From a virus (lineage: Duplodnaviria > Heunggongvirae > Uroviricota > Caudoviricetes): a stretch of 64,000 nucleotides of DNA. The stretch lies in IMG/VR virus record IMGVR_UViG_3300031555_010707. One strand, 5' to 3'. A model generated the notes under the pieces. The model did no database searches and was not told where the DNA came from. It saw only the letters and a program-made list of their open reading frames with translations. A program made the position numbers and the translations under genes. Positions 6,357-33,864 of the stretch are shown here, one piece after another. Each line of letters opens with the position of its first letter. The stretch's first letter is position 1.

Positions 6357-6920
6357 TCACTTCCCTTCAATTAAAAATGACGCTGCCTCGTCGGCAACGT
6401 GAACCAACCATGCAAGCGGATATTGTTCATAGGCATCCCGGACGTAAGTGTTCCCGTCCCAGCTGCCCATATGGCAGTTGATAGCAACCGCCTCTTCCGC
6501 AGTAAGCCTGATGAAGCGTTCAATGAGGAACACAGATTTGCTCCCGTGTCCGCCGTAATGGAATTTTTCTTCGATTGTATAGCAAGGAACACTTGTCCAT
6601 TTGCCATCCACCTTTACATTCCTCGCATCCTGCTTATACATTCCAATTTTGCAGAAATCGTGGAAGAGGGAAACAATCGCAATAGATTCATTGCTGAATT
6701 TGTCTTCCAGCTCATAAGCCTTTACAAGTCTGCAGAGCTCATCGTATACATTGAGGGAATGCTGAAGCAATCCTCCCGATTCTGAGAGGTGGAATCTGGT
6801 GCTCGCAGGTGCAATATAGAAGTCATTCTTTTCAAGAGCTTCCAGAAGAGCATTGATGCCCTCACGATGAATATGCTCGCGGCAAATTGCCAGGAATCTC
6901 TCTTTATTCGTTTCCGACAT
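6357..6920 (-). CDS. HD-domain phosphohydrolase
   Basis: H...HD motif in SLFHDFCK, and further conserved His residues. Confidence 0.55.
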   Translation of the reverse strand: MSETNKERFLAICREHIHREGINALLEALEKNDFYIAPASTRFHLSESGGLLQHSLNVYDELCRLVKAYELEDKFSNESIAIVSLFHDFCKIGMYKQDARNVKVDGKWTSVPCYTIEEKFHYGGHGSKSVFLIERFIRLTAEEAVAINCHMGSWDGNTYVRDAYEQYPLAWLVHVADEAASFLIEGK

Positions 6921-7452
6921 CGGAGCCCTCCTTGTCTTCCTTATTTGGAATCTCTTCTCTGGAACCGTATATATTAAGCGCCTCTCTCAAAAGGAGTTGA
7001 ATGGCGCGTGCAACAGTAGTACGCCTGATTTCGTACCGTTCTCCATTCAAGTGGAGTGGCAAGGCGTAAGCATATTTACGGGTGGCAATGCCGACATAAA
7101 CTGTACCCACGGGAATTTCGTCAGTTCCTCCGCCCGGCCCGGCCAAACCAGTGGCTGATACGCCAATATCTGCACCGGACTTTTTCTGGGCGCTTTGAGC
7201 CATTTCGATAGCTACCTTGGCACTGACAACATCGAAATGTTTAATAATTTTCGGATCTATATCAAGAAGCGCCGTCTTCATTTCCGTCTGGTAGGTTACA
7301 AAGCCGCCGCGAATTACTTCGGATGCACCGGGAATATCAACCAGAGTTGCAGCAATCAAGCCGCCGGTCAAACTTTCCGCAGTGACAACAGTGAGTTCGG
7401 ACATCTTAAGCGCATCCACAGTCGTTTGCGCCAAGCAGTACAGATCAACCAT
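6904..7452 (-). CDS. pncC: CinA C-terminal domain / PncC-like NMN deamidase
   Basis: TAESLTGGLIAATL matches the CinA TAESCTGG motif; 182 aa. Confidence 0.65.
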   Translation of the reverse strand: MVDLYCLAQTTVDALKMSELTVVTAESLTGGLIAATLVDIPGASEVIRGGFVTYQTEMKTALLDIDPKIIKHFDVVSAKVAIEMAQSAQKKSGADIGVSATGLAGPGGGTDEIPVGTVYVGIATRKYAYALPLHLNGERYEIRRTTVARAIQLLLREALNIYGSREEIPNKEDKEGSDVGNE

Positions 7453-15903: not shown

Positions 15904-16674
15904 TCAATCGATGGTTTTCAGACCCGGATCGTAACTTGGCGGCATCGAGAGCTTGAAAAGGTTGGCTCGATGCAAACGGTCAATTCGGTTCTTTGTAATC
16001 TGGCTTTCGCATTTACCAGTACGGATATAGGTATCCAGCTCGGCATAGGTAAAACCAAGGTTATCCTCGTCCGTCTTTCCACAGAGTCCGTCACTGGGAA
16101 CCTTGTCTACCAGCTCAGGCGGCAAACCGCATTCGTAGCCAACCGCCTTTACCTCTTCAACAGTGAGCTTCGCCAGAGGGCAGAAGTCTCCGGCGCTATC
16201 ACCGTAGCGTGTAGAGTAACCTACCCAATCCTCCGACAGATTGCAAGTGTTGGCTACTCGGCCATTCAAGGACTGAGACACAGCATACAGCGTAGCCATT
16301 CGGATTCGAGGAGGCAGATTCACCATTGTCTGGTCACTCAACGTGATACCAGCGCCTCCAATAGCATTGAGTACGTCACTCACAGCCAAGGTGACAGGCA
16401 CCATAAAGTGCTTAATTCCCAGGTGTTCGCAGAGTTTGAAGCTATCATCGATGTCCAGCTGCGCCAGATTTGGCATCAGGACGCCAATGACCCGCTCTCC
16501 TCCGAGGGCTTCCTTGCACAAAGTAGCAACGATATTGCTATCCTTGCCTCCAGAAATGCCGATGACAGCATTGCAGTCTTTGCCATTGGATTCAAACCAC
16601 TCTCGAATCCACTGTACAATTTCTTCTTTTATTTTCTTGGCATCAAACTTGTTCATGTTTACCCCATACTTCAT
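15904..16674 (-). CDS. nadE: NH3-dependent NAD+ synthetase
   Basis: PP-loop VIGISGGKDS. Collinear with B. subtilis NadE: PRIRMATLY, TRYGDSAGDFCPLAKLT and LGFTYAELDTYIRTGK match. Confidence 0.7.
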   Translation of the reverse strand: MKYGVNMNKFDAKKIKEEIVQWIREWFESNGKDCNAVIGISGGKDSNIVATLCKEALGGERVIGVLMPNLAQLDIDDSFKLCEHLGIKHFMVPVTLAVSDVLNAIGGAGITLSDQTMVNLPPRIRMATLYAVSQSLNGRVANTCNLSEDWVGYSTRYGDSAGDFCPLAKLTVEEVKAVGYECGLPPELVDKVPSDGLCGKTDEDNLGFTYAELDTYIRTGKCESQITKNRIDRLHRANLFKLSMPPSYDPGLKTID

Positions 16675-18509: not shown

Positions 18510-19004
18510 TTACATCTTGGGCAATTCGTAGAGCGTTACGTCCAAGCCCCCGAGTTCTTCTTCGATGATTGTATAGACGGTATCCCAGTTGCCGCCTCCT
18601 CGGTCGCAGCCAATTCGATAAGGCAATGCGATTTGAGGTTCTTTGCCCGATTTTTGCCGGATGGCATCAGCAAAAATGCTCAGCTGAGCCAAGCAACTTC
18701 TGAATGCCCCATAGTCCGTATATTGCTTGCCATCATATCCGTACTTATTCTGAGCGAACATATTGGCGATATAAATCCGCTTGCCATCCGGAAGATTCTC
18801 GGATGATAGCTGCGTGTTTCCCAGCAAGCTCTCTGTCTTTCCTTTGACACTTCGGCAAGCACTTTGATAGTTGGCGTATGCGCCTGGAAATAACATCCGA
18901 ACCTGCTTGGCAACGCCGGAACCCATCACTCCCTGGCAATTTACCTGATGAGCAATGATGTCGGCATTACTTGCGAATAAATCTCCGATTTTATGTTGTA
19001 TCAT
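18510..19004 (-). CDS. Macro-domain protein (ADP-ribose binding or processing)
   Basis: IGDLFASNADIIAHQVNCQGVMGSGVAKQV is a MacroD/YmdB-like motif. Confidence 0.6.
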   Translation of the reverse strand: MIQHKIGDLFASNADIIAHQVNCQGVMGSGVAKQVRMLFPGAYANYQSACRSVKGKTESLLGNTQLSSENLPDGKRIYIANMFAQNKYGYDGKQYTDYGAFRSCLAQLSIFADAIRQKSGKEPQIALPYRIGCDRGGGNWDTVYTIIEEELGGLDVTLYELPKM

Positions 19005-19158: not shown

Positions 19159-19590
19159 TCACTTCTTTCCGTCTGCGATAATAGAGTTTTCTCCGGCATC
19201 GCAAGCTCGCTTGTAGTAGACGCGACCTTCCATTTTGCTTTCCGCCTTCCTCATCGCTCCAAGACACTGCTTTAGCTGATTGACCGCATTGGTTTGAGAC
19301 GCAATCCAGTTCATCAATGGTGTCAGCGTATCAATAATGTCTTTGGCGACTCGGCGGCGTTGGCGAATTTTTCGAAGCTCCACCGCCGCATGAGCACGTT
19401 CATGATACGTCCACTCGCAAAGTTCAATTTCATGAAGCAGATCCTGCGTCTTTTTATCGCAGTAATCCAATTCATTTTGAGCCATTTTGAGGGACTCATT
19501 AGCCAAAGAAAACATATTCAGTGTCTCTTCAATGGACTGGCTCGTTACTTGAGGAGTGAGCTTATCCAGATCGTCAAGCACTGCGTTCAT
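19159..19590 (-). CDS. Hypothetical protein
   Basis: AGGAGG 7 nt upstream of ATG 19590; overlaps the Pnkp stop by 17 nt. Confidence 0.35.
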   Translation of the reverse strand: MNAVLDDLDKLTPQVTSQSIEETLNMFSLANESLKMAQNELDYCDKKTQDLLHEIELCEWTYHERAHAAVELRKIRQRRRVAKDIIDTLTPLMNWIASQTNAVNQLKQCLGAMRKAESKMEGRVYYKRACDAGENSIIADGKK

Positions 19591-21781
19591 TGACTGCCTC
19601 CTGATAATACTTGTTTCGGAGTTCGACAATGTTGGTAGAAGGATTACTCTCGGCATACTTTCTGACGAAAGCATAGAAATAATTCGTCAACGGAGTTTGC
19701 AAAGCGCCGGTGTTACGGAACTGTCCATAGTTGAATACGCTTTGGGCTACTCCGCGAAGAAGTTTCCATGTGGCGTAATAATCCGTCTTGATCTTGAGCA
19801 TGAATCCGACAGCATCTCTGATGACATATCCTTCAAAGGGAATGGCATCGGGACGGGCAAGAAGATTCTGAGAATTCTGATACAGGGAAAGGAATTCTTC
19901 CCAGTTATTGATGACACAGGCTCTCTTTTTCACTTCCAGTCCAAGCTCTTCTGCGGCACTGACGAGTTGAACATAGCTGCAAGCCGAGAATTCCAGTTGG
20001 TTTTCCACCATGTCCAGAAGATAGAGATGCTTCTCTCGGTATTCAATGATGTGTGGATCATTGACGGGATCAACCGCCTCGAACAGGAGCGTTACATCAT
20101 GTTTCTTCAGGTACTCTGTCAGCCTCTGCTTCTGCTCATCAGTGAACATGGAACGGAAAAGTTCTGCCATCGCACCGTCAACAGAAGACTTGGTGGTCAT
20201 GAACAAGGAGCCCGTAGACTGGTCATAAGAAACCAGCCCGAGGAAACCATTCTCTTTTTCGAAGACTTCAACAGGGAACACGAGTTTCTTCTGAAGCACA
20301 GACAGCTTGGTGTTCTGTCTTTCGTTGACTGCGAAGAATTTTTCATATCCACGAGCCACAACCTTCATGTTGGTGGTGTCGATATACAAACCGCGAGCAC
20401 GAACTGTAAGCGAATTCCACTTCTTATCCATAAAGGCTGCCCGAGTGAAGTTGAAGGAAGAAATATGACCGAAGGACTTTTCATGAATGAGGGGACTCTG
20501 CCGCATCCTCGCAACGAGATCGGAAATGATCTCTCTTTCAGTAGATGCAACGGGTTGCGCATCTTTGGGTGGCTGAACAACGGGCTGTTCGGCGGAGGGA
20601 TAATTAACCACCTTCCAGCCTTCTTCAGACAGGACGACGGTTCTCAGCTCTCCTCCACGTTCTACAGCGCCTTCGAGACAGAAACAATGTTCCGAAACAT
20701 GAGTCGGCAAACCGGAAACATTGCGATGACCGAACACCTGATAATACATGGGCGGAGCGGATTTTTCAAAGGACTCAACACATTCCTCCATCTGCTCGTA
20801 AAAGCCAACGCCGGAAATCATCTGGCAGGCAGGAACAAAGTCGAGATGGCCGAGAGAAGACCAGTCTGAAATACCTCCATGAGTGCAGAGTACAGTGCGA
20901 CCACGATATGTATAATAGGAACACTGTCGGATACGGCGGTAGAATTTTCTTATTTCTACCATGGAAATGCCGGCTGCATCAAGCTGGAATCCAGTCTTCG
21001 AATTGAACTCCCTTGAAGCAGATTGGCGACCGTTCGCCCACTCCCACAGATGAACCTCGTGATTTCCTTCAAGGAAACACACATTGGGGCGTTCTGAAAT
21101 ATCCATGAGGAACTGAAGAACCTTCGGAGAATCCGGGCCGCGATCAGCATAATCTCCGCAGAAAATATAGGCGGTCTTATCATCGATGCCATCCACAGGA
21201 TTTTCCCCGAACACCTTCTGGAGAGTGGAGTAGCATCCGTGAATATCACCGATGTGTACGACCTTATCATATTCGCTCAAATCGAAAGGAGTAGTAAATA
21301 TCTGCTCCCAATCATCGACGGTGATTCTCTTGATTCCGGCTGGAATATTCTGTGTCTGGAAACGTGAGTATACCTTTTCAATGTAGTCCTGTGGAACGAT
21401 TTTGAGCGGAGGCCGCTGGGCGTTACGGCGGAGGGTTTCCTCCAGAGGAATATCCGTCATGTCCAGGCAATAGATCCGATAGCGGTATTGATGCGCCAAT
21501 TCTTTGTAGCGCGTCATTTCGCTCGTCTTGGAATTGCAGGCATCGATAATCGTGAAATCACCGCGCTGCATCCTGCGTTCAAGCATGGCAAACAAGGTAT
21601 CCCAGACAATTCTATCGTTCTTCTGGGATATGACGGGCTTACCTTGTGGATCAAGTGCCGGGGAGGCAAAAAGGGAACGAATCTTATCAGACGAAAGTGC
21701 ATGGTCAGACAGGCCGTTCTTCTCAATCCAAGTGGATTTGCCGCAACCTGGAGCACCGCGCATCAAAATGAGAATTCGCAA
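19574..21781 (-). CDS. pnkp: Trifunctional RNA repair enzyme: polynucleotide 5'-kinase, metallophosphoesterase and ATP-dependent ligase-like (Clostridium thermocellum Pnkp-type architecture)
   Basis: N-terminal P-loop GAPGCGKST. Central GDIHGC, GDYADRG and GNHE calcineurin motifs. C-terminal EKENGFLG KxDG-like adenylyltransferase motif; 735 aa. Confidence 0.75.
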   Translation of the reverse strand: MRILILMRGAPGCGKSTWIEKNGLSDHALSSDKIRSLFASPALDPQGKPVISQKNDRIVWDTLFAMLERRMQRGDFTIIDACNSKTSEMTRYKELAHQYRYRIYCLDMTDIPLEETLRRNAQRPPLKIVPQDYIEKVYSRFQTQNIPAGIKRITVDDWEQIFTTPFDLSEYDKVVHIGDIHGCYSTLQKVFGENPVDGIDDKTAYIFCGDYADRGPDSPKVLQFLMDISERPNVCFLEGNHEVHLWEWANGRQSASREFNSKTGFQLDAAGISMVEIRKFYRRIRQCSYYTYRGRTVLCTHGGISDWSSLGHLDFVPACQMISGVGFYEQMEECVESFEKSAPPMYYQVFGHRNVSGLPTHVSEHCFCLEGAVERGGELRTVVLSEEGWKVVNYPSAEQPVVQPPKDAQPVASTEREIISDLVARMRQSPLIHEKSFGHISSFNFTRAAFMDKKWNSLTVRARGLYIDTTNMKVVARGYEKFFAVNERQNTKLSVLQKKLVFPVEVFEKENGFLGLVSYDQSTGSLFMTTKSSVDGAMAELFRSMFTDEQKQRLTEYLKKHDVTLLFEAVDPVNDPHIIEYREKHLYLLDMVENQLEFSACSYVQLVSAAEELGLEVKKRACVINNWEEFLSLYQNSQNLLARPDAIPFEGYVIRDAVGFMLKIKTDYYATWKLLRGVAQSVFNYGQFRNTGALQTPLTNYFYAFVRKYAESNPSTNIVELRNKYYQEAVNERSA

Positions 21782-23133
21782 GAGAACACCTCCTTGTTTT
21801 CATTCAAGTAATTGACAATATGGACACGTTCATTTTTCAAAGAGCCATCAATTACAGCATCAAGAACCTTGTTCAGAACAAAGCCGACTCTTTTCCCTTC
21901 CGCTATATTGAGCAACTCCATTACATCTTTTCCGCTGATTTCCAAATCTTTCAGACTAAAGCATTGGTTTTGCTCGACAATCTCATAGGCAATAGCTGCC
22001 AGAGATACGCAGCGTTCAATTCGAGACTGCTGAGTGCTCTCCTTATGAGCGAGAATATCAGCCATTCTGATTTCAACCAGTCTTGAAAATTGGAGTTCAC
22101 CGATTTTGTTCAACCATCGGCGCACTGTCTTCGGGGTAGGCTCAATAACGGCATCGTGGAACAACACAAGTTCGAGTACGTCATGCTTGGTTTTGTTGTC
22201 AAAACGCAATCTGTCAAGAACCTTTTCGGCAAGATCTCGACTGTATACTCCGTGACCATAGAAGTGCCCTCCGTTTTCATCCGTGGTATAGCAACATGGC
22301 TTGCCAATATCATGAAGGAATAACGAGAGCTTTATAACAATGTCATTTAATCCGCAGTTTTCTACGGCATGACAAATGTGATCGTATACGGTGTACTCGT
22401 GATACCTGTTATTTTGGTCAAATCCAATGCAGGGACTCATTTCTGGAATGATGACAGAGATAACATCGCTATACTCCAGTAAGATTTGAAGAACTCCTCG
22501 ACCACAGAGCATCTTGCATAGCTCGGTCTGAATTCTCTCTGCTGCAATGTTCAGGAGCTTTTCTTTATTCCTATGGATTGCCTGAGATGTTTTCTCTTCA
22601 ATGGCAAAACCATATGTAGAAGCAAAGCGCATTGCTCTCAGGATTCGAAGCGCATCTTCTCCGAATCTGTCATCTGGATTTCCAACGCATGAAATGATTC
22701 TTCTATTCAGGTCGTCCTGACCATGAAAAGGATCGATAATTCTTTCTCCGTCATAGGCCATTGCATTAACAGTGAAATCACGGCGTGCTAAATCCAGCTC
22801 TATGTTTTTCACGAATTCTACACTATCAGGATGTCGGCTATCAGAATAAAGTCCGTCAATTCTGAAAGTCGTAACCTCATACTGCTCAGAATCCCCGAGA
22901 TTAACCGTGATTGTTCCGTGCTGTAAGCCTGTATCAATCGTCTTGATATTGCGTTTTGCGAAGAAAGCCTTCATTTCAAGAGGAGTGGCTGATGTGCAAA
23001 TATCCCAGTCTTTCGGTTCAAGGTCAAGCAAGCTGTCTCGCACGCATCCACCAACGACATAGGCATCAAACCCGGCCTTGCGCAAATCCTGTATGATGAA
23101 ATTGGCGCCGTGCGGGATTTGGATATTACGCAT
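21763..23133 (-). CDS. cca: CCA-adding tRNA nucleotidyltransferase with a C-terminal HD domain
   Basis: GGCVRDSLLDLEPKDWDICTS is the class II head domain; HDIGK is the HD motif. Confidence 0.75.
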   Translation of the reverse strand: MRNIQIPHGANFIIQDLRKAGFDAYVVGGCVRDSLLDLEPKDWDICTSATPLEMKAFFAKRNIKTIDTGLQHGTITVNLGDSEQYEVTTFRIDGLYSDSRHPDSVEFVKNIELDLARRDFTVNAMAYDGERIIDPFHGQDDLNRRIISCVGNPDDRFGEDALRILRAMRFASTYGFAIEEKTSQAIHRNKEKLLNIAAERIQTELCKMLCGRGVLQILLEYSDVISVIIPEMSPCIGFDQNNRYHEYTVYDHICHAVENCGLNDIVIKLSLFLHDIGKPCCYTTDENGGHFYGHGVYSRDLAEKVLDRLRFDNKTKHDVLELVLFHDAVIEPTPKTVRRWLNKIGELQFSRLVEIRMADILAHKESTQQSRIERCVSLAAIAYEIVEQNQCFSLKDLEISGKDVMELLNIAEGKRVGFVLNKVLDAVIDGSLKNERVHIVNYLNENKEVFSCEFSF

Positions 23134-24148
23134 CGATAGCTCTCCTGTTCACTTCGATAACAAATTCCTCGACCTTCTTCATGTCCGGATGCTTTGGGAG
23201 GTTGGTATTTGCCTTCGCATATTCCAGACGCTTCTCGTATTCGCTCACCATCTCAAAGAATTCAGGCGCATATGAACCGTCTTCGCGCTGAAATTTACCG
23301 TTTCGGATACTGAGCAGAAAATCTCTGTCGTTGTATCGATAGGTGTTGATTTCGCCTTTCTCCAAGATGTCCAGACACAGAAGATAGAGACGAATCAGGT
23401 GCATGGCGTGCTTGTTGAGATGATCGTCGTCCTTCTTATGATTGCGATGGTGCAACTTCTCGTAATCTCGAAGTACACTGGACAGGGTGTTAAGCATGAT
23501 GCTGAACTCTCTGGCAGGATACTTTTCAAGGTGAATGTTGCAGAACACTTCCTTATCAAGATCGTCACGAGAACTCTCGTCGGTAAAGAGGCTGATACAA
23601 CCCTGATCGAAATCGGAATACTTGGAAGCGAATTCCCGAAGGGCTCGTTCCAGTGCCCCTCTGATGTGTTCCTCTTTCTTTGCCTGCGGCAACCTGTCTC
23701 TGGCGAGCGCGTTTTCCAAACGGCGAAGCTGCTGAGTAGCATATCCTCCGAACGAACTGACCGCTCTTTGCGAAAGGAACAGGCTTGCGTTGTCGATCAT
23801 CATGCGGCCTGCATCGGAAACATAAAAATAATGCTCCGGTTTGCAGCCGAGCATTTCAATCGTATTGGGATTGCAGTTCAGAAGCAAGCTGACCAGTTTG
23901 TTGAAGCCATAGATGGTAGTGTCGGTCTGCGTGTTTACGACCTGTTCAAAATTTGAGAGGCCGAGAAGATCACTCTTGCTGTTCATTGCACAGCCTCTTA
24001 CATCTACATCCGATGTTTCAATGTTGGTTCCATAGGCATGACTTCCGCCAAGCGTAAGGAACATAAGTCGGCCTGCGAGGTGAGGATTGGTTCGCAAGAA
24101 GTCATATTCCTCTCCGTTTACCATTTCTTTGATTTGCTCAAGAGTCAT
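23126..24148 (-). CDS. Pol-beta-superfamily nucleotidyltransferase, RlaP-like (RNA-ligase-associated NTase)
   Basis: LGGSHAYGTNIETSDVDVRG is a GS-YG-SDxDxRG signature. Confidence 0.5.
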   Translation of the reverse strand: MTLEQIKEMVNGEEYDFLRTNPHLAGRLMFLTLGGSHAYGTNIETSDVDVRGCAMNSKSDLLGLSNFEQVVNTQTDTTIYGFNKLVSLLLNCNPNTIEMLGCKPEHYFYVSDAGRMMIDNASLFLSQRAVSSFGGYATQQLRRLENALARDRLPQAKKEEHIRGALERALREFASKYSDFDQGCISLFTDESSRDDLDKEVFCNIHLEKYPAREFSIMLNTLSSVLRDYEKLHHRNHKKDDDHLNKHAMHLIRLYLLCLDILEKGEINTYRYNDRDFLLSIRNGKFQREDGSYAPEFFEMVSEYEKRLEYAKANTNLPKHPDMKKVEEFVIEVNRRAIDA

Positions 24149-24160
24149 ATACTCGCTCCT

Positions 24161-24595
24161 TTACCACATCTCATTGCCGATTTTGACACGAGGAATATTC
24201 CGTTGAATAGCTGCAAGCTCGTTCATCAGTAATCCGATCTTCTGGAAAGGGACACAGACAGTGCCCTCTCCTACTTTCATAGTCAGAATGTCTTCGGCAC
24301 AATCCAGAGAATACTCGGCCAAATCTCCCATAAGAGAAACATTGCGGCTCAGAACCGCAAGACATGCTTCCGGTTCCTCTTTTTCATGAATGGGCGCTGC
24401 GTTCATCGGCGCAGCAAAATTGCGAACGGCTGGTTTGCGCAGATTGGAAGGCTGTTTGCCAATCACTCGAAGCACCGTCTGATAGGAAACATCAAGGGCT
24501 TTGGCAATTTCCTGGTTGCTCATTCCATCTTCACGCATGTGGAGCAGTTCGCCAGGGGATACTTCACGCATTAAGCTCATATGCGCTACCTCCAT
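24161..24595 (-). CDS. HTH-domain regulator-like small protein
   Basis: GMSNQEIAKALDVSYQTVLRVIG helix-turn-helix. Confidence 0.4.
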   Translation of the reverse strand: MEVAHMSLMREVSPGELLHMREDGMSNQEIAKALDVSYQTVLRVIGKQPSNLRKPAVRNFAAPMNAAPIHEKEEPEACLAVLSRNVSLMGDLAEYSLDCAEDILTMKVGEGTVCVPFQKIGLLMNELAAIQRNIPRVKIGNEMW

Positions 24596-24605: not shown

Positions 24606-26099
24606 TCAGAAATTGCCGAACCACAAGATGTTGCGAATATCCGACAGAGAATACTCTTTCAGCATCTTGCCATCGCGGAAAACAGGAATCAGAAGATTCA
24701 TGGGGTCGTCGTTGTGTTCAGCAAAGGTCAGGCCATCAACGCAGGAAAAATCCTTTCCATCGAAATGCACGGCGCAGCATCCTCGCTGAGATTTCTTGAA
24801 GTGCGCGTTATCCGTCTTGGGATTTTTGAAAATCATGATGGGGGTTCCATTCTCGTCTTCTGCATAAGTTGCCTTAATGGCAATGCCAAAGGTATCACGA
24901 GTAAATGGATCGAAGTGACGGACACCGTTCTGGTCATAATGTTCAAGGCACTGCATTGAGAAAGAGCCGACGCCAAGAGAAACATTATTACATGCAAAAC
25001 CATTCTGCGTCAGGATTTCATAGATCTTTTCGCAGCGTTCCGGTGTAATGGAATCACCGTAAATGGCTTTGACGTGAGGATCAAGAACCTTATAGCCCTT
25101 GGAATTGACCGTACCACCAAACGTTTCCCAAAGATGGAAGACAGTCTGGGTAACAATCTCAACAGGATCACCGCTGTCTCCGCGAACCAGAAGGCATCCA
25201 TCATGATTCATGATCTCATCCTTCAGCTGAGGAAGAATGTTATCCACCAGATTCCAGTAATCATAAGAATCGGATACCATCGAGAAAGAATGATGAGGAT
25301 AGATTTCCGTAAGCAGTCGGCGAACGAAAGTAATTTCGTCTCCATCGACAGCGTAATTTGAACACATTACACTGTGTTCGGTAGAAATCGCGCCGAATGC
25401 AACGGGTTCCTTGGTACAATCGCAGTTGTAATACTTCTCAAGCCATGGAAGAGTCGGAACGGTTGCAGTATTCAGGAACGAAAGGCAGAAACCAGCGCTG
25501 GACATTACCGCACTTTCGATACTCTCCTGACCTCTCATGGAGAAATCACCAAGAGCTTTGGCACGAGGAAAAGAATCATCGACGGTCTTATCGTAATACT
25601 TATTGACGATGTTTCGATACATAACACCAACGTTTGCACTTACCATAGCGTGCCAAAGCGTGGCAGAGATCGCTGATTCAATGGTATTGACCAGCCATGC
25701 AAACTTAGGATGAGTATTGGAAATCTCGAACATAGGAACCTTGATGTTCACACGGCAACCTTCGGGCAGTGCCCGAATCTCAAGAGGCAAATAGCCCAGA
25801 TCGTAAAGCTCCTCGATCTTTTTGAGATTGTAGGAATTCTTTCCGAGGCCGTTGTCAACGATGCGAGCATATTCTGCCAACACCTCATCCTTCGGACGAG
25901 AGAAAAAGAAATCATCAAAGCATTCGATGAGATACGTTTTGATGAATGCCTGCAGGCCAAACATAACGAGCTTATTTTGACCTTCCAGGCGGGACATCCT
26001 GGGCGTAAAATACGATACCAGCTTCGTGACATTCTTAGGGTACATGTCGGAATGTACCACCTTGTACCAGTCACACAGCAAAAGCGGATTAAGTTTCAT
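24606..26099 (-). CDS. nadV: Nicotinamide phosphoribosyltransferase family protein (NadV/NAMPT-like; could be the Namat of a NARP1-type pair)
   Basis: The N-terminus LLCDWYKVVH resembles the NAMPT DSYK motif; 497 aa. Confidence 0.7.
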   Translation of the reverse strand: MKLNPLLLCDWYKVVHSDMYPKNVTKLVSYFTPRMSRLEGQNKLVMFGLQAFIKTYLIECFDDFFFSRPKDEVLAEYARIVDNGLGKNSYNLKKIEELYDLGYLPLEIRALPEGCRVNIKVPMFEISNTHPKFAWLVNTIESAISATLWHAMVSANVGVMYRNIVNKYYDKTVDDSFPRAKALGDFSMRGQESIESAVMSSAGFCLSFLNTATVPTLPWLEKYYNCDCTKEPVAFGAISTEHSVMCSNYAVDGDEITFVRRLLTEIYPHHSFSMVSDSYDYWNLVDNILPQLKDEIMNHDGCLLVRGDSGDPVEIVTQTVFHLWETFGGTVNSKGYKVLDPHVKAIYGDSITPERCEKIYEILTQNGFACNNVSLGVGSFSMQCLEHYDQNGVRHFDPFTRDTFGIAIKATYAEDENGTPIMIFKNPKTDNAHFKKSQRGCCAVHFDGKDFSCVDGLTFAEHNDDPMNLLIPVFRDGKMLKEYSLSDIRNILWFGNF

Positions 26100-26112
26100 A
26101 TTTCCCTTCCTT

Positions 26113-26922
26113 TCATTTGTTCAGGGGGAAAACGGTGATCTTCTCGTGTTCTTTGTGGAAGATACTGTCCGTGGTATAGACATGATCCACAAAATCCGTC
26201 GTCAGCAAATCACCCTCAAAGATTGCATGTTCGCAGTGGGAACAGAAAACCGAAACGCTTTTCGCGCCAAGTTCTTTAAGGGCTTTTGCGGAATGAAAAA
26301 ACGTGCCGCCGCGACAACAGATGTCATCCACGATCAGCACGTTCTTGCCCTTGATGTCGGCATTACAAACAACATCGAGGCCGGTAATCTTTCCAGTTTC
26401 CCAGCAGCGACGTTTAATGCCGAATCCGTATGGAGTTTTAATCATATCAGAATAGCGCTTCATAGCGCCTTCATCCGGGTAGAACAGAAGCAAATCGGGA
26501 TCATCCATATTTCCCATCGCCTTGCGAATATAAGGCTCTGGGGACAGGATCTTGCAGTTGTTGATGAGCGCAGTTGCAACATTGGAATGAGGATCGAGGA
26601 TATACACCGCCTTAAAGCCCAGCATGTTGATAAAGTCGGCAAAATACTTCAGCGTAAAGACTTCATAATCATGATGCGTTCTGTCCATTCTGGCATTCGG
26701 ACAATACGGAAGAACGAGCGAGACGCCCTTAAAAGCGGAATGCTGCCAAAGATGACGGACAATGTAGTAAAGCGCTGTCATTTCATCTTCGCTCTCATAA
26801 TGCCAGCGGATTACTGCCTCGCCTCCATTGTAGGCAACATCGGGGCTGGAAACTCCAAACGCGAAAGTTCCGTCTGGAAACCGGCTGTCCAGCTGGATGC
26901 GGTAATTGTTCAGCCAAATCAT
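26113..26922 (-). CDS. PRPP-synthetase-like phosphoribosyl pyrophosphokinase (Prs; or an Adps-type ADP-ribose pyrophosphate synthetase)
   Basis: PRPP-binding loop VLIVDDICCRGGT. Shorter than canonical Prs at 269 aa. Confidence 0.6.
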   Translation of the reverse strand: MIWLNNYRIQLDSRFPDGTFAFGVSSPDVAYNGGEAVIRWHYESEDEMTALYYIVRHLWQHSAFKGVSLVLPYCPNARMDRTHHDYEVFTLKYFADFINMLGFKAVYILDPHSNVATALINNCKILSPEPYIRKAMGNMDDPDLLLFYPDEGAMKRYSDMIKTPYGFGIKRRCWETGKITGLDVVCNADIKGKNVLIVDDICCRGGTFFHSAKALKELGAKSVSVFCSHCEHAIFEGDLLTTDFVDHVYTTDSIFHKEHEKITVFPLNK

Positions 26923-26937
26923 AGCTAACCCCTCCGT

Positions 26938-27567
26938 TTAGCCGTTGATGATCTTGATGTTACAGGGAGCCATAGCGTCGAGCGCCGTTTTGTGAGATTC
27001 GGGAGATACACAAGCGCAGCAAGCTGCGTCCACGATGATCTCTGCCTCGGGAAGCACAGCGCGAAGCAGCATGGCGTTGCTCAGCACGCAAATGCCCGTA
27101 CAGACTCCGCAAAGAACGATACGGTCATACTGTTCATCGCTTGCTACATTAGAGAGAACAACGCTTCCGAAGGTGGGCTTATTGAGCATGGCGAAAAAAT
27201 GACCAGAGCCAGCACAGTTCATCTTCGAATAGGATTTTTGTACGTCCTCGTTGATCTGCCAACCATCACTGTTCTGAATACAGTGAGGAACCGGGAGCAT
27301 TTTGCCTTCAGCCGTGTCCATGTAGTTGTCTTGGTGCGTGTCTCTGGTCATGATGATGTCGCCCTGCCAGCCTTCGATTTTCTCGCAGACCTTGGGCACG
27401 ATTGCCTTGGCCTCGTCTGTGCCAAGGACACCTGTTACGAAGTCGTTTTGCATGTCAACGACTACAAGAAGTTCCTTCAAATTCCTTTCCTCCTTGATAT
27501 GTTTTAGATGATGTTCGTCATCTATGACCTCGGCTTTTCTTGTCGAAACTGCCAGGGTCATGCCCAA
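26938..27567 (-). CDS. pncA: Nicotinamidase / isochorismatase-family hydrolase
   Basis: LVVVDMQNDF has the catalytic Asp. PHC is a metal-binding motif. CGVCTGICV carries the catalytic Cys. Confidence 0.6.
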   Translation of the reverse strand: MGMTLAVSTRKAEVIDDEHHLKHIKEERNLKELLVVVDMQNDFVTGVLGTDEAKAIVPKVCEKIEGWQGDIIMTRDTHQDNYMDTAEGKMLPVPHCIQNSDGWQINEDVQKSYSKMNCAGSGHFFAMLNKPTFGSVVLSNVASDEQYDRIVLCGVCTGICVLSNAMLLRAVLPEAEIIVDAACCACVSPESHKTALDAMAPCNIKIING

Positions 27568-28173: not shown

Positions 28174-28264
28174 TGGCGGAGAGAGTGGGATTCGAACCCA
28201 CGGACGGCGCGGAGCCGTCGGCGGTTTTCAAGACCGCTGCCTTAAGCCGCTCGGCCATCTCTCC
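28174..28264 (-). tRNA. tRNA-Ser(TGA), type II, CCA encoded
   Basis: Cloverleaf folded by hand; anticodon loop CTTGAAA. Confidence 0.75.
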
Positions 28265-28272
28265 ATTACGGG

Positions 28273-28479
28273 TCAGTTTTTTGTAAAAGGTATAACCACT
28301 TCTTTAAGAGCTTGAATTCTATCGAAACGGTCATTGCGGCCATCAACCCAGCGTTCTTTACCACAGCGTTTACAGCGATATTTCCGCATTGAGAATCGAA
28401 CATTGCCGTCAGTAGATTCAAACCAACTTACTTTAACGAACTTATGTCTGCAGAATAATGAGATAAGCCATTTTTTCAT
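28273..28479 (-). CDS. Small zinc-ribbon protein
   Basis: CKRCGK pair. Confidence 0.3.
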   Translation of the reverse strand: MKKWLISLFCRHKFVKVSWFESTDGNVRFSMRKYRCKRCGKERWVDGRNDRFDRIQALKEVVIPFTKN

Positions 28480-28490
28480 ACTGCGTCTCC

Positions 28491-28790
28491 TTAGAACTTT
28501 CCAAGTATAACGGCCTTATCGGATATGTATTCGCCGTTAATGGTATTGAAGTATTGACCGATCGGGCGAACAAGATAGACGATTGGATTTCCTCCGTACT
28601 TAATACAGGCTTTCTTGGCAAATTTCTGAGCAGTAGCAAGAGACGTTGTGAAGAAAACCTTATCTTCGTACTTCTTCCTCCAATGTTCACGCTTGCAATT
28701 CGTGATGATGGGAGGCAAGAGAATTTTGTGAATTTGGAGAGAATCCGTAGTTCCATGATAGAAAACTTTAGTATTCGCCGGAAAATTCAT
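28491..28790 (-). CDS. Small protein resembling the C-terminal NAD-binding lobe of Tpt1/KptA RNA 2'-phosphotransferase (an ART-fold)
   Basis: VFYHGTTDSLQIHKIL matches the KptA LYHGTASRFLDEIK. GGNPIVYLVRP matches HGSPVILTV. Confidence 0.3.
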   Translation of the reverse strand: MNFPANTKVFYHGTTDSLQIHKILLPPIITNCKREHWRKKYEDKVFFTTSLATAQKFAKKACIKYGGNPIVYLVRPIGQYFNTINGEYISDKAVILGKF

Positions 28791-29046
28791 GTTCAATGAC
28801 CTCGCATCCGTGGGCGGCGTCTTCGATGAGCCCAATCAAAAGAGCTTCTACGTCATCAAGAAGGTTTGCATAGGTACTCCCGTAAAGCCCAACCATATTG
28901 TCCGAATCTCTTTCTTCGTCCTCCGGACTGGGGATACGGACATTATGCTGCTCAAGAATTTCTTCGAACATATCGATAATTCTTGCCGCTTCGTCATGCG
29001 TATAGATGGTCTTTCTATCCGAATCAGATTTGACTATACCCGTCAT
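28768..29046 (-). CDS. Hypothetical acidic protein
   Basis: ORF. Confidence 0.3.
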   Translation of the reverse strand: MTGIVKSDSDRKTIYTHDEAARIIDMFEEILEQHNVRIPSPEDEERDSDNMVGLYGSTYANLLDDVEALLIGLIEDAAHGCEVIEHEFSGEY

Positions 29047-29273
29047 CGTACTCCTCCTTGATGATTTCTTGTCCTCTGCATCCTCTTTCGAGTCAAGCGG
29101 CTTGGAACGCTTCTTGCTGCATTACAAGCGGCAGACAGCCCAGTCCTACTATCTGCCGGATGTCCAGCTGTACTGGTTGGAGGGAACGCGATACTCCTGG
29201 CAAGCGCGAGCCTGTCTCCATCAAGCTCGTAAATGCGCTTTCATGCCCTGTCAATAACCAAGTGTATCGCAGC

Positions 29274-29352
29274 AGTGGTCTTCCTGGCGGGACTCGAACC
29301 CGCGACTCCTTGATTAAAAGTCAAGTGCTCTACCAACTGAGCTACAGGAAGG
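29274..29352 (-). tRNA. tRNA-Lys(TTT)
   Basis: Anticodon loop CTTTTAA; CCA encoded. Confidence 0.75.
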
Positions 29353-29355
29353 TAA

Positions 29356-29430
29356 TGGCGGCTCGTCAGGGATTCGAACCCCGAACCTATCGGTTAACAG
29401 CCGAGTGCTCTACCTTTGAGCTAACGAGCC
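29356..29430 (-). tRNA. tRNA-Asn(GTT)
   Basis: Anticodon loop CTGTTAA; CCA encoded. Confidence 0.75.
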
Positions 29431-29468
29431 ATGATGCCACCGCCATTGTCGTAGAGGTGGCAAACAGA

Positions 29469-29660
29469 TTAGAATAACCGCTTTCCGCAAGTCGGGCAGC
29501 GGTAGATGGTGAAATTTCCGATCTTATAATCGGTTCCATTGGTTTTGCAGTTGATCGGAAGATATTCGTTATCCCATTTCAGGCGATGGATTTCTCTTCC
29601 GTTCTTATCGACTTCGGCAACATATGGAACATAGCCTTTCGGATTGCATACACTGCACAT
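29469..29660 (-). CDS. Small zinc-ribbon protein
   Basis: CxxC...CxxC. Confidence 0.3.
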   Translation of the reverse strand: MCSVCNPKGYVPYVAEVDKNGREIHRLKWDNEYLPINCKTNGTDYKIGNFTIYRCPTCGKRLF

Positions 29661-29663
29661 AAA

Positions 29664-29951
29664 TCACGCACCTTCTTCCAGAAGATCGTCTTCAGTCATT
29701 TCATCCATGTCGCTTCTCATCGCCTGAAGTTTTCTCTGATCCGAAATCTTGTTGCTGGACATAGAATTCGGGCTACCTCCCCATGACTTGCGGGGATTGC
29801 ACATACAGCAGGAGCAGTGAATCTTGTTCTTGGAATATTGATGAAGATTGTCATACCAGTCTCCACCCATAATGTTCCTGACGATGGAACGCTTGCGTTT
29901 TGCATGTTTCCAATCCATCTTTCTGGAACGACCTCTGTTATTCGGCTTCAT
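29664..29951 (-). CDS. Hypothetical basic Cys-containing small protein
   Basis: AAGGAG 7 nt upstream of ATG 29951. Confidence 0.3.
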   Translation of the reverse strand: MKPNNRGRSRKMDWKHAKRKRSIVRNIMGGDWYDNLHQYSKNKIHCSCCMCNPRKSWGGSPNSMSSNKISDQRKLQAMRSDMDEMTEDDLLEEGA

Positions 29952-29973
29952 GCTATCACTCCTTGCTAAAGAA

Positions 29974-30066
29974 TGGCGGAAGGTGTGAGATTCGAACTCA
30001 CGGTGCCCGAATTTCAGGCACGCCTGATTAGCAATCAGGTGCATTAAGCCACTCTGCCAACCTTCC
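29974..30066 (-). tRNA. tRNA-Ser(GCT), type II
   Basis: Anticodon loop TTGCTAA; long variable arm. Confidence 0.75.
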
Positions 30067-30069
30067 AGA

Positions 30070-30144
30070 TGGAGCTCCCATTCGGATTTGAACCGAAAAC
30101 CAATCGCTTACGATGCGATTGCTCTGCCGTTGAGCTATAGGAGC
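30070..30144 (-). tRNA. tRNA-Thr(CGT)
   Basis: Anticodon loop ATCGTAA. Confidence 0.7.
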
Positions 30145-30411
30145 ACTTGTGTCTACAATTTCAATCGAACTTCCGATTTCTTCTCCAGCGCCTGCACCAA
30201 CAGAAATCGCAATCCAGATACCCGACACGATGCCCGTCGATTTTGCACACCGAAGAACCATGCGCCACATGTTCTCGATTGCCACAACTTCCGCAGCAGC
30301 GCCCTTCTCTTACGTCGTCTGAAGCGTATACTTTCAGGCCGTTGTTGCTATTGCGAGTATCATAAGAAAGACATATGAGCAACGAGAACACCTCCTAAAA
30401 TGATTGATGAA

Positions 30412-30488
30412 ATGGAGCCGGATATGGGACTCGAACCCATGACCCTGCGCTTACAAAACGCACGCTCTGGCCATCTGAGCTAATCCGG
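30412..30488 (-). tRNA. tRNA-Thr(TGT)
   Basis: Anticodon loop TTTGTAA. Confidence 0.7.
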
Positions 30489-30577
30489 CATGTGTGGTGG
30501 CCTCTGCTGGTAACGATCCAGCCTCCGTAGATTTTCAGTCTACTGCTTTCACCATGTAAGCTAAAAGGCCAAGTAAA

Positions 30578-30654
30578 TGGTGCCGAGGGTGGGACTTGAA
30601 CCCACAAATCGCAGATTTTGAGGCTGCTTCCTATGCCATTTCGGATACCCCGGC
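30578..30654 (-). tRNA. tRNA of uncertain identity: type I structure, canonical register gives anticodon CAA, discriminator A73
   Basis: Acceptor, D and T arms are good. The anticodon stem GCAGC/TCTGC has a loop-proximal C-U mismatch; loop CTCAAAA. Confidence 0.55.
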
Positions 30655-30817
30655 TTGTGTGTTTCCCGCTTAGATTGAACATTGTATCCTTTGGGTCACG
30701 GCTACTCAGATCAAGCCGAACATTTGCAACTGTCCAGTTCCAATGCTTTTCAGCGGACATTTTCATTCTCTGTGAGGAATCCACAACGCTCACATCAGCA
30801 GGGAGCGACCCTGCATT

Positions 30818-30900
30818 TGGTATGGATGAAGGGATTCGAACCCTTACGCTTACGCACTGGGACTTAAAACCAGCGTGCCTGCCAATTACACCACATCCAC
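30818..30900 (-). tRNA. tRNA-Leu(TAA), type II
   Basis: Leu-like D arm and long variable arm. Loop TTTAAGT. G1-U72 first pair. Confidence 0.6.
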
Positions 30901-31176
30901 TTAGTCTATTTTGTTGCGCCATTCATCATAGCTGGGAGGAGACATACCCTCATACTCATCGCTGTTATGGTCAATTGCCCATTGTACGAGGAACAAAAGA
31001 TACCGCTCCCAACGCACGTCATAATCGTCCAGCAATGCACAATTGGTCAACCTCATGCCACTTTGTTCGAGCCATCCGAATTCATGCTCAAGCATTTCTA
31101 TCGGAGGAAGCTCGGCTGTTGGCTCCTCTTGATAATTGATAATTGCAACGAAGGTTCTTTCATCCACCGCTATCAA
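30901..31176 (-). CDS. Hypothetical small protein
   Basis: ORF. Confidence 0.3.
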   Translation of the reverse strand: MIAVDERTFVAIINYQEEPTAELPPIEMLEHEFGWLEQSGMRLTNCALLDDYDVRWERYLLFLVQWAIDHNSDEYEGMSPPSYDEWRNKID

Positions 31177-31243
31177 CCTTTCCTATGGAAAGGCACCCCG
31201 CCACAATGAACGGGGTGCCAAGAGAATATGTGTTTATGTACAA

Positions 31244-32737
31244 TTAGTGCTTGTCGGCAATAGCTCCACCAAGCATACCGGACAGCAGAGCCATCAGATC
31301 CAGACCGGTTGCATCCTTGAAGCCGTCTTGCACCTGCTTCATACCGGTCGTAACCGTGCCGGTCAGATTGGAGGTGCCGCCCTCGTAGATGGTCATGTTG
31401 TCGATGCTTTCCATGGGCTTCGCAATTGCCGCTGCAATGTCCGGCATGGTCTTGACGTATTCCAACGCGACGTCCAGAACCATCTGCTGCTTCGCGGCAT
31501 CGTCGTATTCCTTCATGGCTTCCGCCTTCTTCAGAATACCAACAGCTTCAGCCTCCGCTTTAGCCTGGATGGCTTCGGCTTCAGCGCGACCCTTTGCGGC
31601 AACGCCTGCCGCCTCGTTCTCCATAGCAATACGCTCTGCTTCGGAACGCGCCTTTTCGGCGGCGGCTCTTTGTTCAGCTTCGAACAGCTCAGCGTCTGCC
31701 TTCTTCTGTCGCTGGAAAAGCTCAGCCTCTGATGCCTTCTGAAGTTCGTACAGACGAGCGTCGGCTCTCTGCTGAGCAGCATACTTGTCTGCTTCAGCCT
31801 TCTTCTTGATCTCGGCATCCAGAGCGCGTTCACGGATGGCGACTTCACGTTCCTTCAGCTCAATCTCCTTTTCCAGACGAGCCAAGTTAGCCTCGGCAGT
31901 CTTAGTTTCGATAGAAGCACGCTGTTCCTGCTCCTGAATGGAATAAGCAGCATCGGCTTCTGCTCGCTTGGCATCCTCGATCTTTTTCAGTTCGGCTCTC
32001 TGGATTGCCAATTCGTTCTTGCGCTTAGCAATCTCTTGCTCAGACTTGACCTGAGCTTCGTTGGCAGCCATAGCGGCCTGCGCTCTGGCAATGGCAATTT
32101 CCTTTTCGGCCTGAGCCTTGGAAACAGCCGCATCCTTGGAAATCTGAACCGTGTTTTCCAGACCCAGATTATCAATGACGCCGTTGCGATCCTTGAAGTT
32201 CTGGATGTTGAAGGTGGTCAGCTCCAAGCCCATATCACGCAGATTGGGCGTTACGTTCTCAATGATGCGTTCAGCGAAAGTCTTCTTGTCGCCCTGAATG
32301 AGTTCTTTCAGAGTGGTCTGAGAAATAATTTCGCGGATGTTGCCTTCGAGAACGGGAGTGATGATTTCCTTGATTTGCTCGGGCTTATAGCCAAGGAACT
32401 TGGATGCTGCAATCTTCAGCAGTTCGGGTTCTTTGGAAATCGCCACGTTGGCCACCGCATCAACCATAATATTGATTGCGTCCTTGGTGGGAATCTCATC
32501 GCGGGAAGTAAAGTCGGACTGAATGTTTTCGAGCGACATGTAGTCAACTCGCTGGATAATGGGGATGACAAGAGCGCCCTGACCAATGATGGTTCTCGAA
32601 CCACGCGGGCCGGTGATGACCATTGCAATGTTCGGGGGAGCCTTCTTGTACATAACCTTGCCGATGAAGACAACCAAGAGGACTGCGGCGATGAAACAAC
32701 CAACAAAAACAGCGGCAGACATGATAGATTCGAGCAT
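31244..32737 (-). CDS. SPFH/band-7 flotillin-like membrane protein
   Basis: N-terminal TM, an SPFH core (NIAMVITGPRGSR...), and a long EA-rich coiled coil. Confidence 0.6.
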   Translation of the reverse strand: MLESIMSAAVFVGCFIAAVLLVVFIGKVMYKKAPPNIAMVITGPRGSRTIIGQGALVIPIIQRVDYMSLENIQSDFTSRDEIPTKDAINIMVDAVANVAISKEPELLKIAASKFLGYKPEQIKEIITPVLEGNIREIISQTTLKELIQGDKKTFAERIIENVTPNLRDMGLELTTFNIQNFKDRNGVIDNLGLENTVQISKDAAVSKAQAEKEIAIARAQAAMAANEAQVKSEQEIAKRKNELAIQRAELKKIEDAKRAEADAAYSIQEQEQRASIETKTAEANLARLEKEIELKEREVAIRERALDAEIKKKAEADKYAAQQRADARLYELQKASEAELFQRQKKADAELFEAEQRAAAEKARSEAERIAMENEAAGVAAKGRAEAEAIQAKAEAEAVGILKKAEAMKEYDDAAKQQMVLDVALEYVKTMPDIAAAIAKPMESIDNMTIYEGGTSNLTGTVTTGMKQVQDGFKDATGLDLMALLSGMLGGAIADKH

Positions 32738-32940: not shown

Positions 32941-32967
32941 CAAAAAACAAGCGCTCCTGGCTTGTTT
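32941..32967 (-). terminator. Rho-independent terminator downstream of 33111..33758
   Basis: On the minus strand, stem ACAAGC / GCTTGT followed by TTTTTT. Confidence 0.45.
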
Positions 32968-33861: not shown

Positions 33862-33864
33862 ATG

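Follow-up and report, generated by a model that had tools for sequence, protein, structure and literature searches.

The present study concerns a 64,000-nt segment of a phage genome (IMGVR_UViG_3300031555_010707, Caudoviricetes), hereafter referred to as the window, and a group of its genes that are predicted to rebuild nicotinamide adenine dinucleotide (NAD+). The core of this group consists of three minus-strand genes, which encode a PncA-like nicotinamidase of the isochorismatase family (26938..27567; open reading frame [ORF] of 209 aa; Pfam Isochorismatase PF00857, E = 1.6e-20), a predicted Adps-type ADP-ribose pyrophosphokinase homologous to the phosphoribosyl pyrophosphate (PRPP) synthetase Prs (26113..26922; 269 aa; phrog_619, E = 2e-70), and a Namat-family transferase with a remodelled pyridine pocket (24606..26099; 497 aa; Pfam NAPRTase PF04095 and NAMPT_N; phrog_448, E = 1e-161). 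The three ORFs are spaced by 15 nt (PncA-like/Adps) and 13 nt (Adps/Namat), and these tightly packed genes are probably co-transcribed. Promoter and terminator scans yielded counts that were not above the shuffled expectation, with no terminator-like site between the three core genes. A search for an NAD+ riboswitch or any other riboswitch in the gap of 600 bp lying upstream of the PncA-like gene, and in the window as a whole, gave tRNAs as the only hits.

NARP1 was described as a two-gene phage operon in which Adps, a Prs homologue, turns ADP-ribose (ADPR) into ADPR-pyrophosphate (ADPR-PP), and Namat, a homologue of NAMPT, forms NAD+ from nicotinamide and ADPR-PP (Osterman et al., 2024; 10.1101/2024.02.11.579819). 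An earlier interpretation of this DNA made without database searches, hereafter the sequence-only reading, had noted that the adjacent NAMPT-like and Prs-like genes have the layout both of a classical NadV and Prs arrangement and of such a NARP1 pair, and had suggested a profile-based classification of both proteins, the results of which favour the latter. The Namat-like protein scored 398 bits against the crystallised Namat of SpbetaL1, 331 against HdNadV of Haemophilus, and 166 against human NAMPT, and the top Foldseek matches of its AlphaFold2 (AF2) model (predicted local distance difference test [pLDDT], 87.5) were the Namat structures 9w5x and 9w5w, with template modelling (TM) scores of 0.88-0.91. 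In a neighbour-joining tree, it was located among Adps-linked Namats and was parted in 100% of bootstraps from the KVP40-type NARP2 Nampt (ValKK3) and mammalian NAMPT, with the caveat that HdNadV, a true Nampt, is also inside the large group. The catalytic His and residues R306, D308, F189, R192, D13, and Y15 of SpbetaL1 Namat are all conserved. The protein also matched NCBIfam NF006629 at 454 bits, the product name of which, 'nicotinate phosphoribosyltransferase', is a naming match and not evidence of specificity.

The Adps-like protein showed weak matches to the Pfam families Pribosyltran, Pribosyltran_N, and Pribosyl_synth and fell under every NCBIfam cut-off for Prs (110.5 against 113 for TIGR01251, and 38-94 against 296-536 for the equivalog models, e.g., 93.6 against 296). 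With a hidden Markov model (HMM) built from canonical Adps proteins encoded next to Namat, the members of which score 184-331 bits, it reached 243 bits, as opposed to 128 for the Prs of E. coli, 128 for that of Sulfolobus, and 103 for that of B. subtilis, and the positions distinguishing Adps from Prs are retained. Because of the tree and scores of Namat and the profile results of Adps, the two proteins are not both placed in the housekeeping clades, and the pair is classified from its sequence as Adps and Namat of the NARP1 type, not as a housekeeping Prs and NadV.

Two further minus-strand genes of the window belong with these three, namely, a gene for a macro-domain protein, which is a candidate ADPR-1''-phosphate phosphatase (Adpp-like; 18510..19004; phrog_335 'phosphatase', E = 2e-45), and that for NadE, a single-domain NH3-dependent NAD+ synthetase (15904..16674; PF02540, E = 7e-48). 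The sequence-only reading was correct in recognising nicotinamidase, NadE, PncC/CinA, and macro genes, all of which were recovered by Pfam and PHROG matches, but its description of genes dispersed independently of the core does not hold. We fetched the 89 closest loci in IMG/VR and GenBank, the Namats of which are 51-78% identical to that of the window; all 89 have NadE at no more than 5 kb from Namat, a PncA-like gene is present in 86, the three exceptions being contig ends, and Adps is also present in 86. The macro gene was found in approximately 55 of the 89 (approximately 60%), mostly approximately 1 kb downstream of Namat and usually directly after it. Three gene orders dominate: PncA-Adps-Namat-macro-NadE, Adps-Namat-macro-NadE-PncA, and PncA-Adps-Namat-NadE. 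While near-identical DNA was not found among GenBank phages, the nearest of them, the unannotated human-faecal contig MT835544, the Namat of which is 66% identical to that of the window, carries an unbroken series of Adps, Namat, macro, NadE, and PncA-like genes, and the module also recurs in Clostridia genomes and in phage Phass-1.

In the window and a 98%-identical relative (a 124-kb contig), the module is split between Namat and macro by an RNA-repair cassette (19574..24595, minus strand; a helix-turn-helix protein, an RlaP nucleotidyltransferase, a CCA-adding enzyme, and a Pnkp/RNA-ligase fusion, as assigned by Pfam), and GP88 and Thg1 genes lie between macro and NadE. This cassette is missing at that position in most of the related loci. 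The PncA-like, Adps, Namat-like, macro, and NadE genes are one conserved module, into which the cassette has been inserted here.

The controls were the surroundings of canonical Namat genes, at 80 viral loci from IMG/VR and 66 loci from bacteria (146 in total). Nearly all of the 80 viral control loci have Adps, whereas, at distances of up to 10 kb from the canonical Namat, tblastn and profile searches revealed neither NadE nor a PncA-like gene at any of the viral (0/80) or bacterial (0/66) loci. The PncA profile used for these counts was built without one ORF, from locus L048, which was the source of weak control matches; the PncA-Adps gene fusion that this ORF appeared to represent was rejected, as it had been mis-extracted through a stop codon into Adps. 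The co-occurrence of these genes in the 89 related loci, against none of the 146 canonical controls, is confirmed to be beyond chance.

Regarding the partner enzymes, the best solved relative of the PncA-like protein is PncA of P. horikoshii (1im5; E = 1e-13), and among its homologues, 87 of 87 have the Cys as well as the Asp/His/His metal site by which nicotinamidases are told apart from other isochorismatase-like hydrolases, and 86 of 87 have the catalytic Asp, with one alignment gap. A Lys (K130) is invariant in 84 of 84, although its equivalence to K94 of the P. horikoshii enzyme depends on the alignment, and the protein is below the NCBIfam PncA equivalog cut-off (24 against 174). The gene of the 98%-identical relative was called at 180 aa, and the true start in the window is probably at 27480, which gives the same length. 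NadE, of approximately 250 aa, is a single domain without a glutaminase domain; SGGxDS is present in 90 of 90 homologues, and its closest relatives of solved structure are NH3-dependent NAD synthetases without exception. Judging from these conserved residues, both partner enzymes look functional.

Poa1p of yeast acts in tRNA splicing, and the match of the macro protein to it is weak (E = 6e-4) and confined to the N-terminal part; the Pfam Macro match is also weak. A role as part of the RNA-repair set was rejected as the main interpretation of the macro domain because relatives without RNA-repair genes have it directly between Namat and NadE. A closer counterpart is gp173 of Vibrio phage Cilsick (31% identical, E = 3e-14), the gene of which is flanked by Adps and Namat in a NARP1-AP operon of the Gary type, and the Adpp phosphatase of NARP1-AP converts ADPR-1''-phosphate to ADPR (10.64898/2026.01.28.702374). 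The macro domain, as a homologue of a protein encoded at the Adpp position of NARP1-AP, is a candidate for the same phosphatase role. At the usual macro site between Namat and NadE, Phass-1 (L258, OQ749652.1, 2861-7299) encodes an HAD-like protein of 139 aa that has a DFDDT motif, and eight variant modules (e.g., L054:1662-2417) encode a longer one, in which the DxDxT motif is similar; the pathway may be fed by these proteins as an alternative phosphatase. Modules were also observed to contain NADAR-like ORFs (six loci) and RtcB-like ORFs (seven loci).

The residues of the nicotinamide site were compared by alignment to the crystallised SpbetaL1 Namat, the numbering of which is used unless the window is stated, with 29 sequences of the variant clade. 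Every module-linked Namat has Ala, or Ser in one subclade, at D215 (human D219), and all have Ser at A242, whereas every canonical Namat or Nampt sequence has Asp or Glu at 215 and Ala at 242. Twelve columns fully separate variant from canonical sequences, and six of these line the carboxamide end of the nicotinamide site: F184 is mostly replaced by Lys or Arg, H187 by Gly, Ser, or Ala, D215 by Ala or Ser, S239 by Gly, I240 by Ala, and A242 by Ser; in the phage clades, G213 is additionally replaced by Asn, Lys, or Arg. The window protein has K181, G184, N210, A212, G236, A237, and S239 in its own numbering, and with D215A and A242S it does not have the complete NARP1 set of nicotinamide-pocket residues, the other five of which, F189, R192, R306, D13', and Y15', are kept; it further has H187G, F184K, and G213N. 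The variant may be found by a sequence rule, namely, Ser at A242 combined with Ala or Ser at D215.

Previous studies on characterised enzymes indicate what these positions do. In the crystal structure of Namat, nicotinamide is in contact with D215 and A242, and NAD+ synthesis by the D215A mutant of SpbetaL1 Namat is 8-fold lower (PMC12774641). Asp219 defines the substrate specificity of human NAMPT (PMC7096376), D219S is listed as a substrate-affinity switch (PMC4919578, Table 2), and D219, H191, G217, and Y188 form a single hydrogen-bond network (PMC4186856). In the phage clades, none of the four network residues is retained. In HGAS, a lineage of chromosomal Clostridium sequences that includes C. 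sartagoforme, C. aciditolerans, and Desnuesiella and owes its name to the residues found at four signature positions, three of the four are replaced and G213 is retained. The loss of the acidic acceptor and the gain of Lys, Arg, Asn, and Ser donors would be expected if the carboxylate of nicotinate were bound instead of the carboxamide, which suggests a change in base. Two side observations were made on related Namat genes. A canonical viral subgroup with Glu at 215 (L111, L112, L115, L124-L129, L132, L135, L139, L151-L153, L159, L160, and L169) has Adps downstream of Namat and no NadE or PncA-like gene nearby, and an in-frame insertion of approximately 83 residues directly follows GDSGDPVEI in the Namat-like gene of two related phages (L008:10001-11722 and L009:4297-6018).

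The family assignments, gene linkage, and residue substitutions described above are observed, and the following scheme is proposed on their basis. A host NADase of the SIR2, TIR, or SEFIR type would cleave NAD+ to ADPR and nicotinamide; the PncA-like nicotinamidase would convert nicotinamide to nicotinate and NH3; Adps would form ADPR-PP from ADPR and ATP; the Namat variant would join ADPR-PP to nicotinate, and not to nicotinamide, to give nicotinic acid adenine dinucleotide (NaAD) and pyrophosphate, without a step involving nicotinic acid mononucleotide (NaMN), NadD, or NMNAT; and NH3-dependent NadE would complete NAD+ from NaAD, ATP, and NH3. The macro protein would feed ADPR-1''-phosphate, a product of aRES-type defence, into the Adps step, as in NARP1-AP. 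The product of PncA is the proposed substrate of Namat, and the product of Namat is the substrate of NadE. Since the scheme runs through nicotinate, a nicotinamidase inside an operon otherwise regarded as nicotinamide-using finds its place. We consider it highly probable that the genes constitute an NAD+ reconstitution module derived from NARP1, and moderately probable, on the basis of residues and gene context, that its route is a deamidated one through nicotinate and NaAD.

A CinA/PncC-domain protein encoded elsewhere in the window, a candidate deamidase of nicotinamide mononucleotide (NMN) (6904..7452, minus strand; PF02464, E = 2e-50; solved CinA/PncC relatives up to E = 3e-24), may provide an accessory route from stray NMN to the deamidated pool. 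Its inclusion in the NAD set by the sequence-only reading is correct as far as the gene itself is concerned and not as regards the conserved module because none of the 89 related loci has a homologue at a distance of 10 kb or less from Namat (0/89); it is an accessory gene of this phage.

The explanation that essentially corresponds to the sequence-only reading is that a canonical NARP1 or NARP1-AP system uses ADPR and nicotinamide to make NAD+, and that the PncA-like protein, NadE, and PncC constitute a parallel branch through host PncB and NadD, with the phage NadE boosting the last step. The Adps and Namat family assignments and the conservation of the catalytic His, R306, D308, F189, R192, D13, and Y15 agree with this explanation, SpbetaL1 D215A keeps some activity (PMC12774641), and cyanophages and a pelagiphage are among the other phages in which NadE is found by itself. 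However, a nicotinamidase in the same operon would destroy the substrate of Namat, and the explanation accounts neither for the occurrence of NadE and PncA-like genes only beside Namats without D215 and A242 (0/146 canonical loci) nor for the replacement of the D219-H191-G217-Y188 network; therefore, we regard it as unlikely. A deamidated branch was anticipated by the sequence-only reading, and the additional nicotinamidase and NadE, with intermediates outside those in the NARP1 and NARP2 papers, bear this part out; on the other hand, the flux probably does not pass through PncB and NadD of the Preiss-Handler pathway of the host, as the pocket has been rebuilt. Because of this remodelling (D215A, A242S, H187G, and F184K), direct NaAD synthesis would be the likely route.

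A related issue is whether ADPR-PP is still the donor. The Namat signature comprises the SCH clamp, GS-X-phi-X-phi-X-phi-TRD with aromatics at positions 3 and 7 (PMC12774641), and also a stacking residue in the beta1-beta2 (SCL) loop, with Arg, Lys, or Tyr at loop position 3. The clamp of the window protein reads GSFSMQC[LEHYDQNGVRHFDPF]TRD; Phe at position 3 (window F380, F392 in SpbetaL1) and TRD are retained, whereas Cys occupies position 7, and the NARP1 motif is not preserved as a whole. A 14-residue insert in this adenine 'selectivity clamp' (approximately residues 384-397) is modelled by AF2 as a beta-hairpin of two strands. The SCL loop residue is present, with window R37 aligning with R40 of SpbetaL1, and an aromatic immediately preceding TRD, which is conserved in the clade of the window, might stand in for the second clamp aromatic. 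HGAS and Phass-1, a recoded gut phage, have D215A and A242S together with canonical clamps (GSYTYQYNTRD and GAYTYQYVTRD, respectively), and both have PncA-like, Adps, and NadE genes beside Namat. Since they pair the altered pocket with a canonical clamp, the pocket change goes with PncA and NadE whether or not the clamp insert is present. The retention of the adenine-binding apparatus in HGAS and Phass-1 argues for ADPR-PP as the donor that would still be used.

These features bear on another explanation, that of a phage-encoded entry into the Preiss-Handler pathway, in which the Prs-like protein makes PRPP, the transferase makes NaMN, host NadD converts this to NaAD, and the phage NadE finishes the pathway, ADPR being no substrate at all. 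The pocket changes fit the use of nicotinate by such an enzyme, the clamp of the window subclade is disrupted by the insert and lacks its second aromatic, and the NF006629 match (454 bits) agrees with it in name only. Nevertheless, the Prs-like protein resembles Adps both in its profile scores and in having retained the Adps-specific residues, an Adpp-like macro domain, handling ADPR derivatives, is frequent in the module, and the full adenine-stacking clamp motif is retained in HGAS and Phass-1, as are R40 and F392 in the window protein. This explanation would also need host NadD for a module that is otherwise self-sufficient, and we consider it very unlikely.

Several points weigh against the deamidated NARP1 route proposed above. 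The substrates and products of the whole clade, as well as the role against host defence, are inferred from sequence and gene context. The broken clamp, with its insert and Cys, makes the use of ADPR-PP in the window subclade less certain than in HGAS and Phass-1. The D215A substitution reduces and does not abolish the nicotinamide-dependent activity of SpbetaL1 Namat, and an enzyme with Ala at this position might still use nicotinamide. Conversely, wild-type human NAMPT can bind nicotinate, going by the title of PDB entry 6ta0, so that Asp would not be an absolute gate. The pocket changes mostly enlarge the site, and the accommodation of a base other than nicotinate is possible. Moreover, the variant clade is monophyletic (92.5% bootstrap), and the perfect correlation between the pocket and genes may be essentially one evolutionary event followed by retention. 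The Namat of Phass-1 is 33% identical to that of the window and is not firmly placed by the tree; its signature may have arisen independently. In the window itself, macro and NadE are located 5.6 kb and approximately 8 kb, respectively, from Namat.

A comparison with known systems clarifies what is shared and what is not. The window resembles NARP1 in having adjacent, co-directional genes of the Adps and Namat clades in a phage genome, and in keeping the catalytic residues, the SCL Arg (R40), the first clamp aromatic (F392), and TRD. It differs in the change of D215 and A242 to Ala and Ser along with H187G, F184K, and G213N, in the 14-residue beta-hairpin insert in the clamp helix with the loss of the second aromatic, and in the nicotinamidase and NadE that accompany the variant pair, with NaAD instead of NAD+ as the predicted product of the transferase. 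With NARP1-AP, it has in common a macro-domain protein homologous to that encoded between Adps and Namat in Thalassavirus phages (31%, E = 3e-14); in contrast to NARP1-AP, the macro gene of the window is 5.6 kb off behind the RNA-repair cassette, the Poa1p match is weak (E = 6e-4), the protein is only a candidate phosphatase, and some relatives carry an HAD-like protein in its place. Preiss-Handler salvage (PncA, PncB, NadD, and NadE) has the same first and last enzymes and deamidated intermediates, whereas the module is without PncB and NadD, for which Adps and a nicotinate-specific Namat acting on ADPR are the proposed replacement.

NARP2 (Nampt and Nmnat, KVP40 type) and NARP3 (PnuC and NadR; PMC13464706) are also phage-encoded means of NAD+ restoration. 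The transferase of the window is 28.7% identical (tblastn) to Nampt of the KVP40-type phage ValKK3 and belongs to a different clade, and as the sequence-only reading had noted, no NMNAT/NadD (cytidylyltransferase) domain was found in the module or in the approximately 50 window ORFs scanned, so that the NARP2 gene pair is not present. NARP3 was rejected as an explanation because neither the PnuC nor the NadR domain is present in the window, nor is Nmnat. In papers on NARP1, NARP1-AP, NARP2, NARP3, RyDEP, and NAD metabolism in gut jumbo phages, no NadE, nicotinamidase, or nicotinate was tied to Adps or Namat, and no description of a nicotinate-type variant was found in open-access papers and bioRxiv. 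The two-enzyme NARP1 kit is already known; what is new here is the bundling of the module and the rebuilt pocket.

The variant is widespread in metagenomes, in which at least 120 protein clusters (90% identity level) are at least 66% identical to the Namat of the window, while among GenBank phages, the PncA-like gene was found in only seven records, all from the human gut. The closest genome matches are Clostridia (Clostridium sp. HCP1S3_C6 at 71%, followed by Herbinix and Ruminococcus); a clostridial bacterium of the gut is therefore the probable host. Two bacterial loci were examined, from C. sartagoforme and C. aciditolerans, and both operons reside on the chromosome, outside any prophage. 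A homologue of the NrtR-type Nudix regulator, with NUDIX and NrtR winged-helix domains, was found in approximately 58 of 80 bacterial Adps/Namat loci (L176-L255), in both the canonical loci of Bacteroidota and the variant loci of Clostridia (e.g., L182:10212-11120 and L186:5672-6562). NrtR is an ADPR-responsive regulator. These findings suggest that the bacterial NARP1-like operons serve as a regulated housekeeping recycling of ADPR and that the pathway has a housekeeping origin.

This bacterial background is also the basis of a further explanation, which accepts the proposed chemistry and assigns it to the general upkeep of NAD+, as a metabolic cassette acquired from Clostridia that recycles the ADPR and nicotinamide released by ADP-ribosyltransferases, sirtuins, and RNA repair. 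Close homologues do reside in bacterial chromosomes, outside prophages and next to NrtR-type regulators, and the phage has a large RNA-repair set and an Arr-like gene (28491..28835, minus strand). The latter encodes a small Arr-ms-like protein with a possible ADP-ribosyltransferase fold (PF12120, 25.4 bits with a cut-off of 25; phrog_2110, E = 3e-18); no sequence match to a solved structure was found at E < 0.5, and the earlier assignment of a Tpt1-like NAD-binding fragment at 28491-28790 was not sustained, given the borderline Arr-ms match. Its homologue is near the module in two relatives only, L002 and the 98%-identical L256, and its link to the module is uncertain. Canonical NARP1, in contrast to a cassette for general upkeep, was shown to act only when NADase defences produce ADPR and to protect phages (10.1101/2024.02.11.579819), the module is widespread in viral contigs, and its macro partner appears to match the anti-aRES Adpp (10.64898/2026.01.28.702374). 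For these reasons, we consider general upkeep to be a highly improbable role in phages in comparison with counter-defence.

Outside the module, the window encodes 17 tRNA genes, a holin, an endolysin-like protein, an integrase, and replication genes. The tRNAs are located at 28174-35759, with a GIY-YIG endonuclease gene (34763-35560) among them, and one odd call (34219-34295) has an anticodon of two bases in ARAGORN and only 34.9 bits in Rfam. An SPFH/flotillin-family membrane protein (Band_7 and Flot; 31244-32737, minus strand) is encoded between the two tRNA clusters and is kept in the 98%-identical relative. RNA-repair and tRNA-related genes at 7473-8549, 15229-15717, 16643-17704, 19574-24148, and 36459-36857 include those for an Rnl2-like ligase, HAD_SAK_2, a Thg1-like guanylyltransferase, the Pnkp/Rnl1 fusion, the CCA-adding enzyme, RlaP, and a cREC_REC domain, and this large set probably represents counter-defence against tRNA-cleaving nucleases. 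Other observations include a reverse transcriptase (RVT_1, E = 2e-16) near a ThiF-family protein (38488-39630 and 40761-41540, both on the minus strand), and a gene for a MazF/PemK-type toxin (11144-11581, minus strand; E = 8e-23) adjoining that of an MrpR-like recombinase (10093-11130). A 960-aa protein (55945-58827, plus strand) matches PF05183 (E = 2e-14), a family of eukaryotic-type RNA-dependent RNA polymerases, and may be a YonO-like single-subunit RNA polymerase. The G+C content peaks at 0.575 at 50001-52000, compared with approximately 0.46 elsewhere, coinciding with ORFs without a family match.

The depletion of NAD+ is among the commonest modes of bacterial antiviral immunity, and NARP1 is, to our knowledge, the main phage answer to it. 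The most complete form of our proposal is that a Namat-family 'nicotinate ADP-ribosyltransferase' makes NaAD in one step, within a complete recycling pathway that is native to Clostridia and has repeatedly been carried by gut phages as a counter-defence against NADases, and the chances for and against this full statement appear to us to be evenly balanced. If true, it would represent a new reaction of NAD metabolism, the formation of NaAD from ADPR-PP and nicotinate, and the base specificity of Namat would be reprogrammable through a handful of identifiable residues. It would also mean that a large and hitherto unnoticed group of human-gut phages and Clostridia uses the nicotinate form, and a housekeeping start of NARP1-type chemistry would bear on the origin of phage counter-defences.

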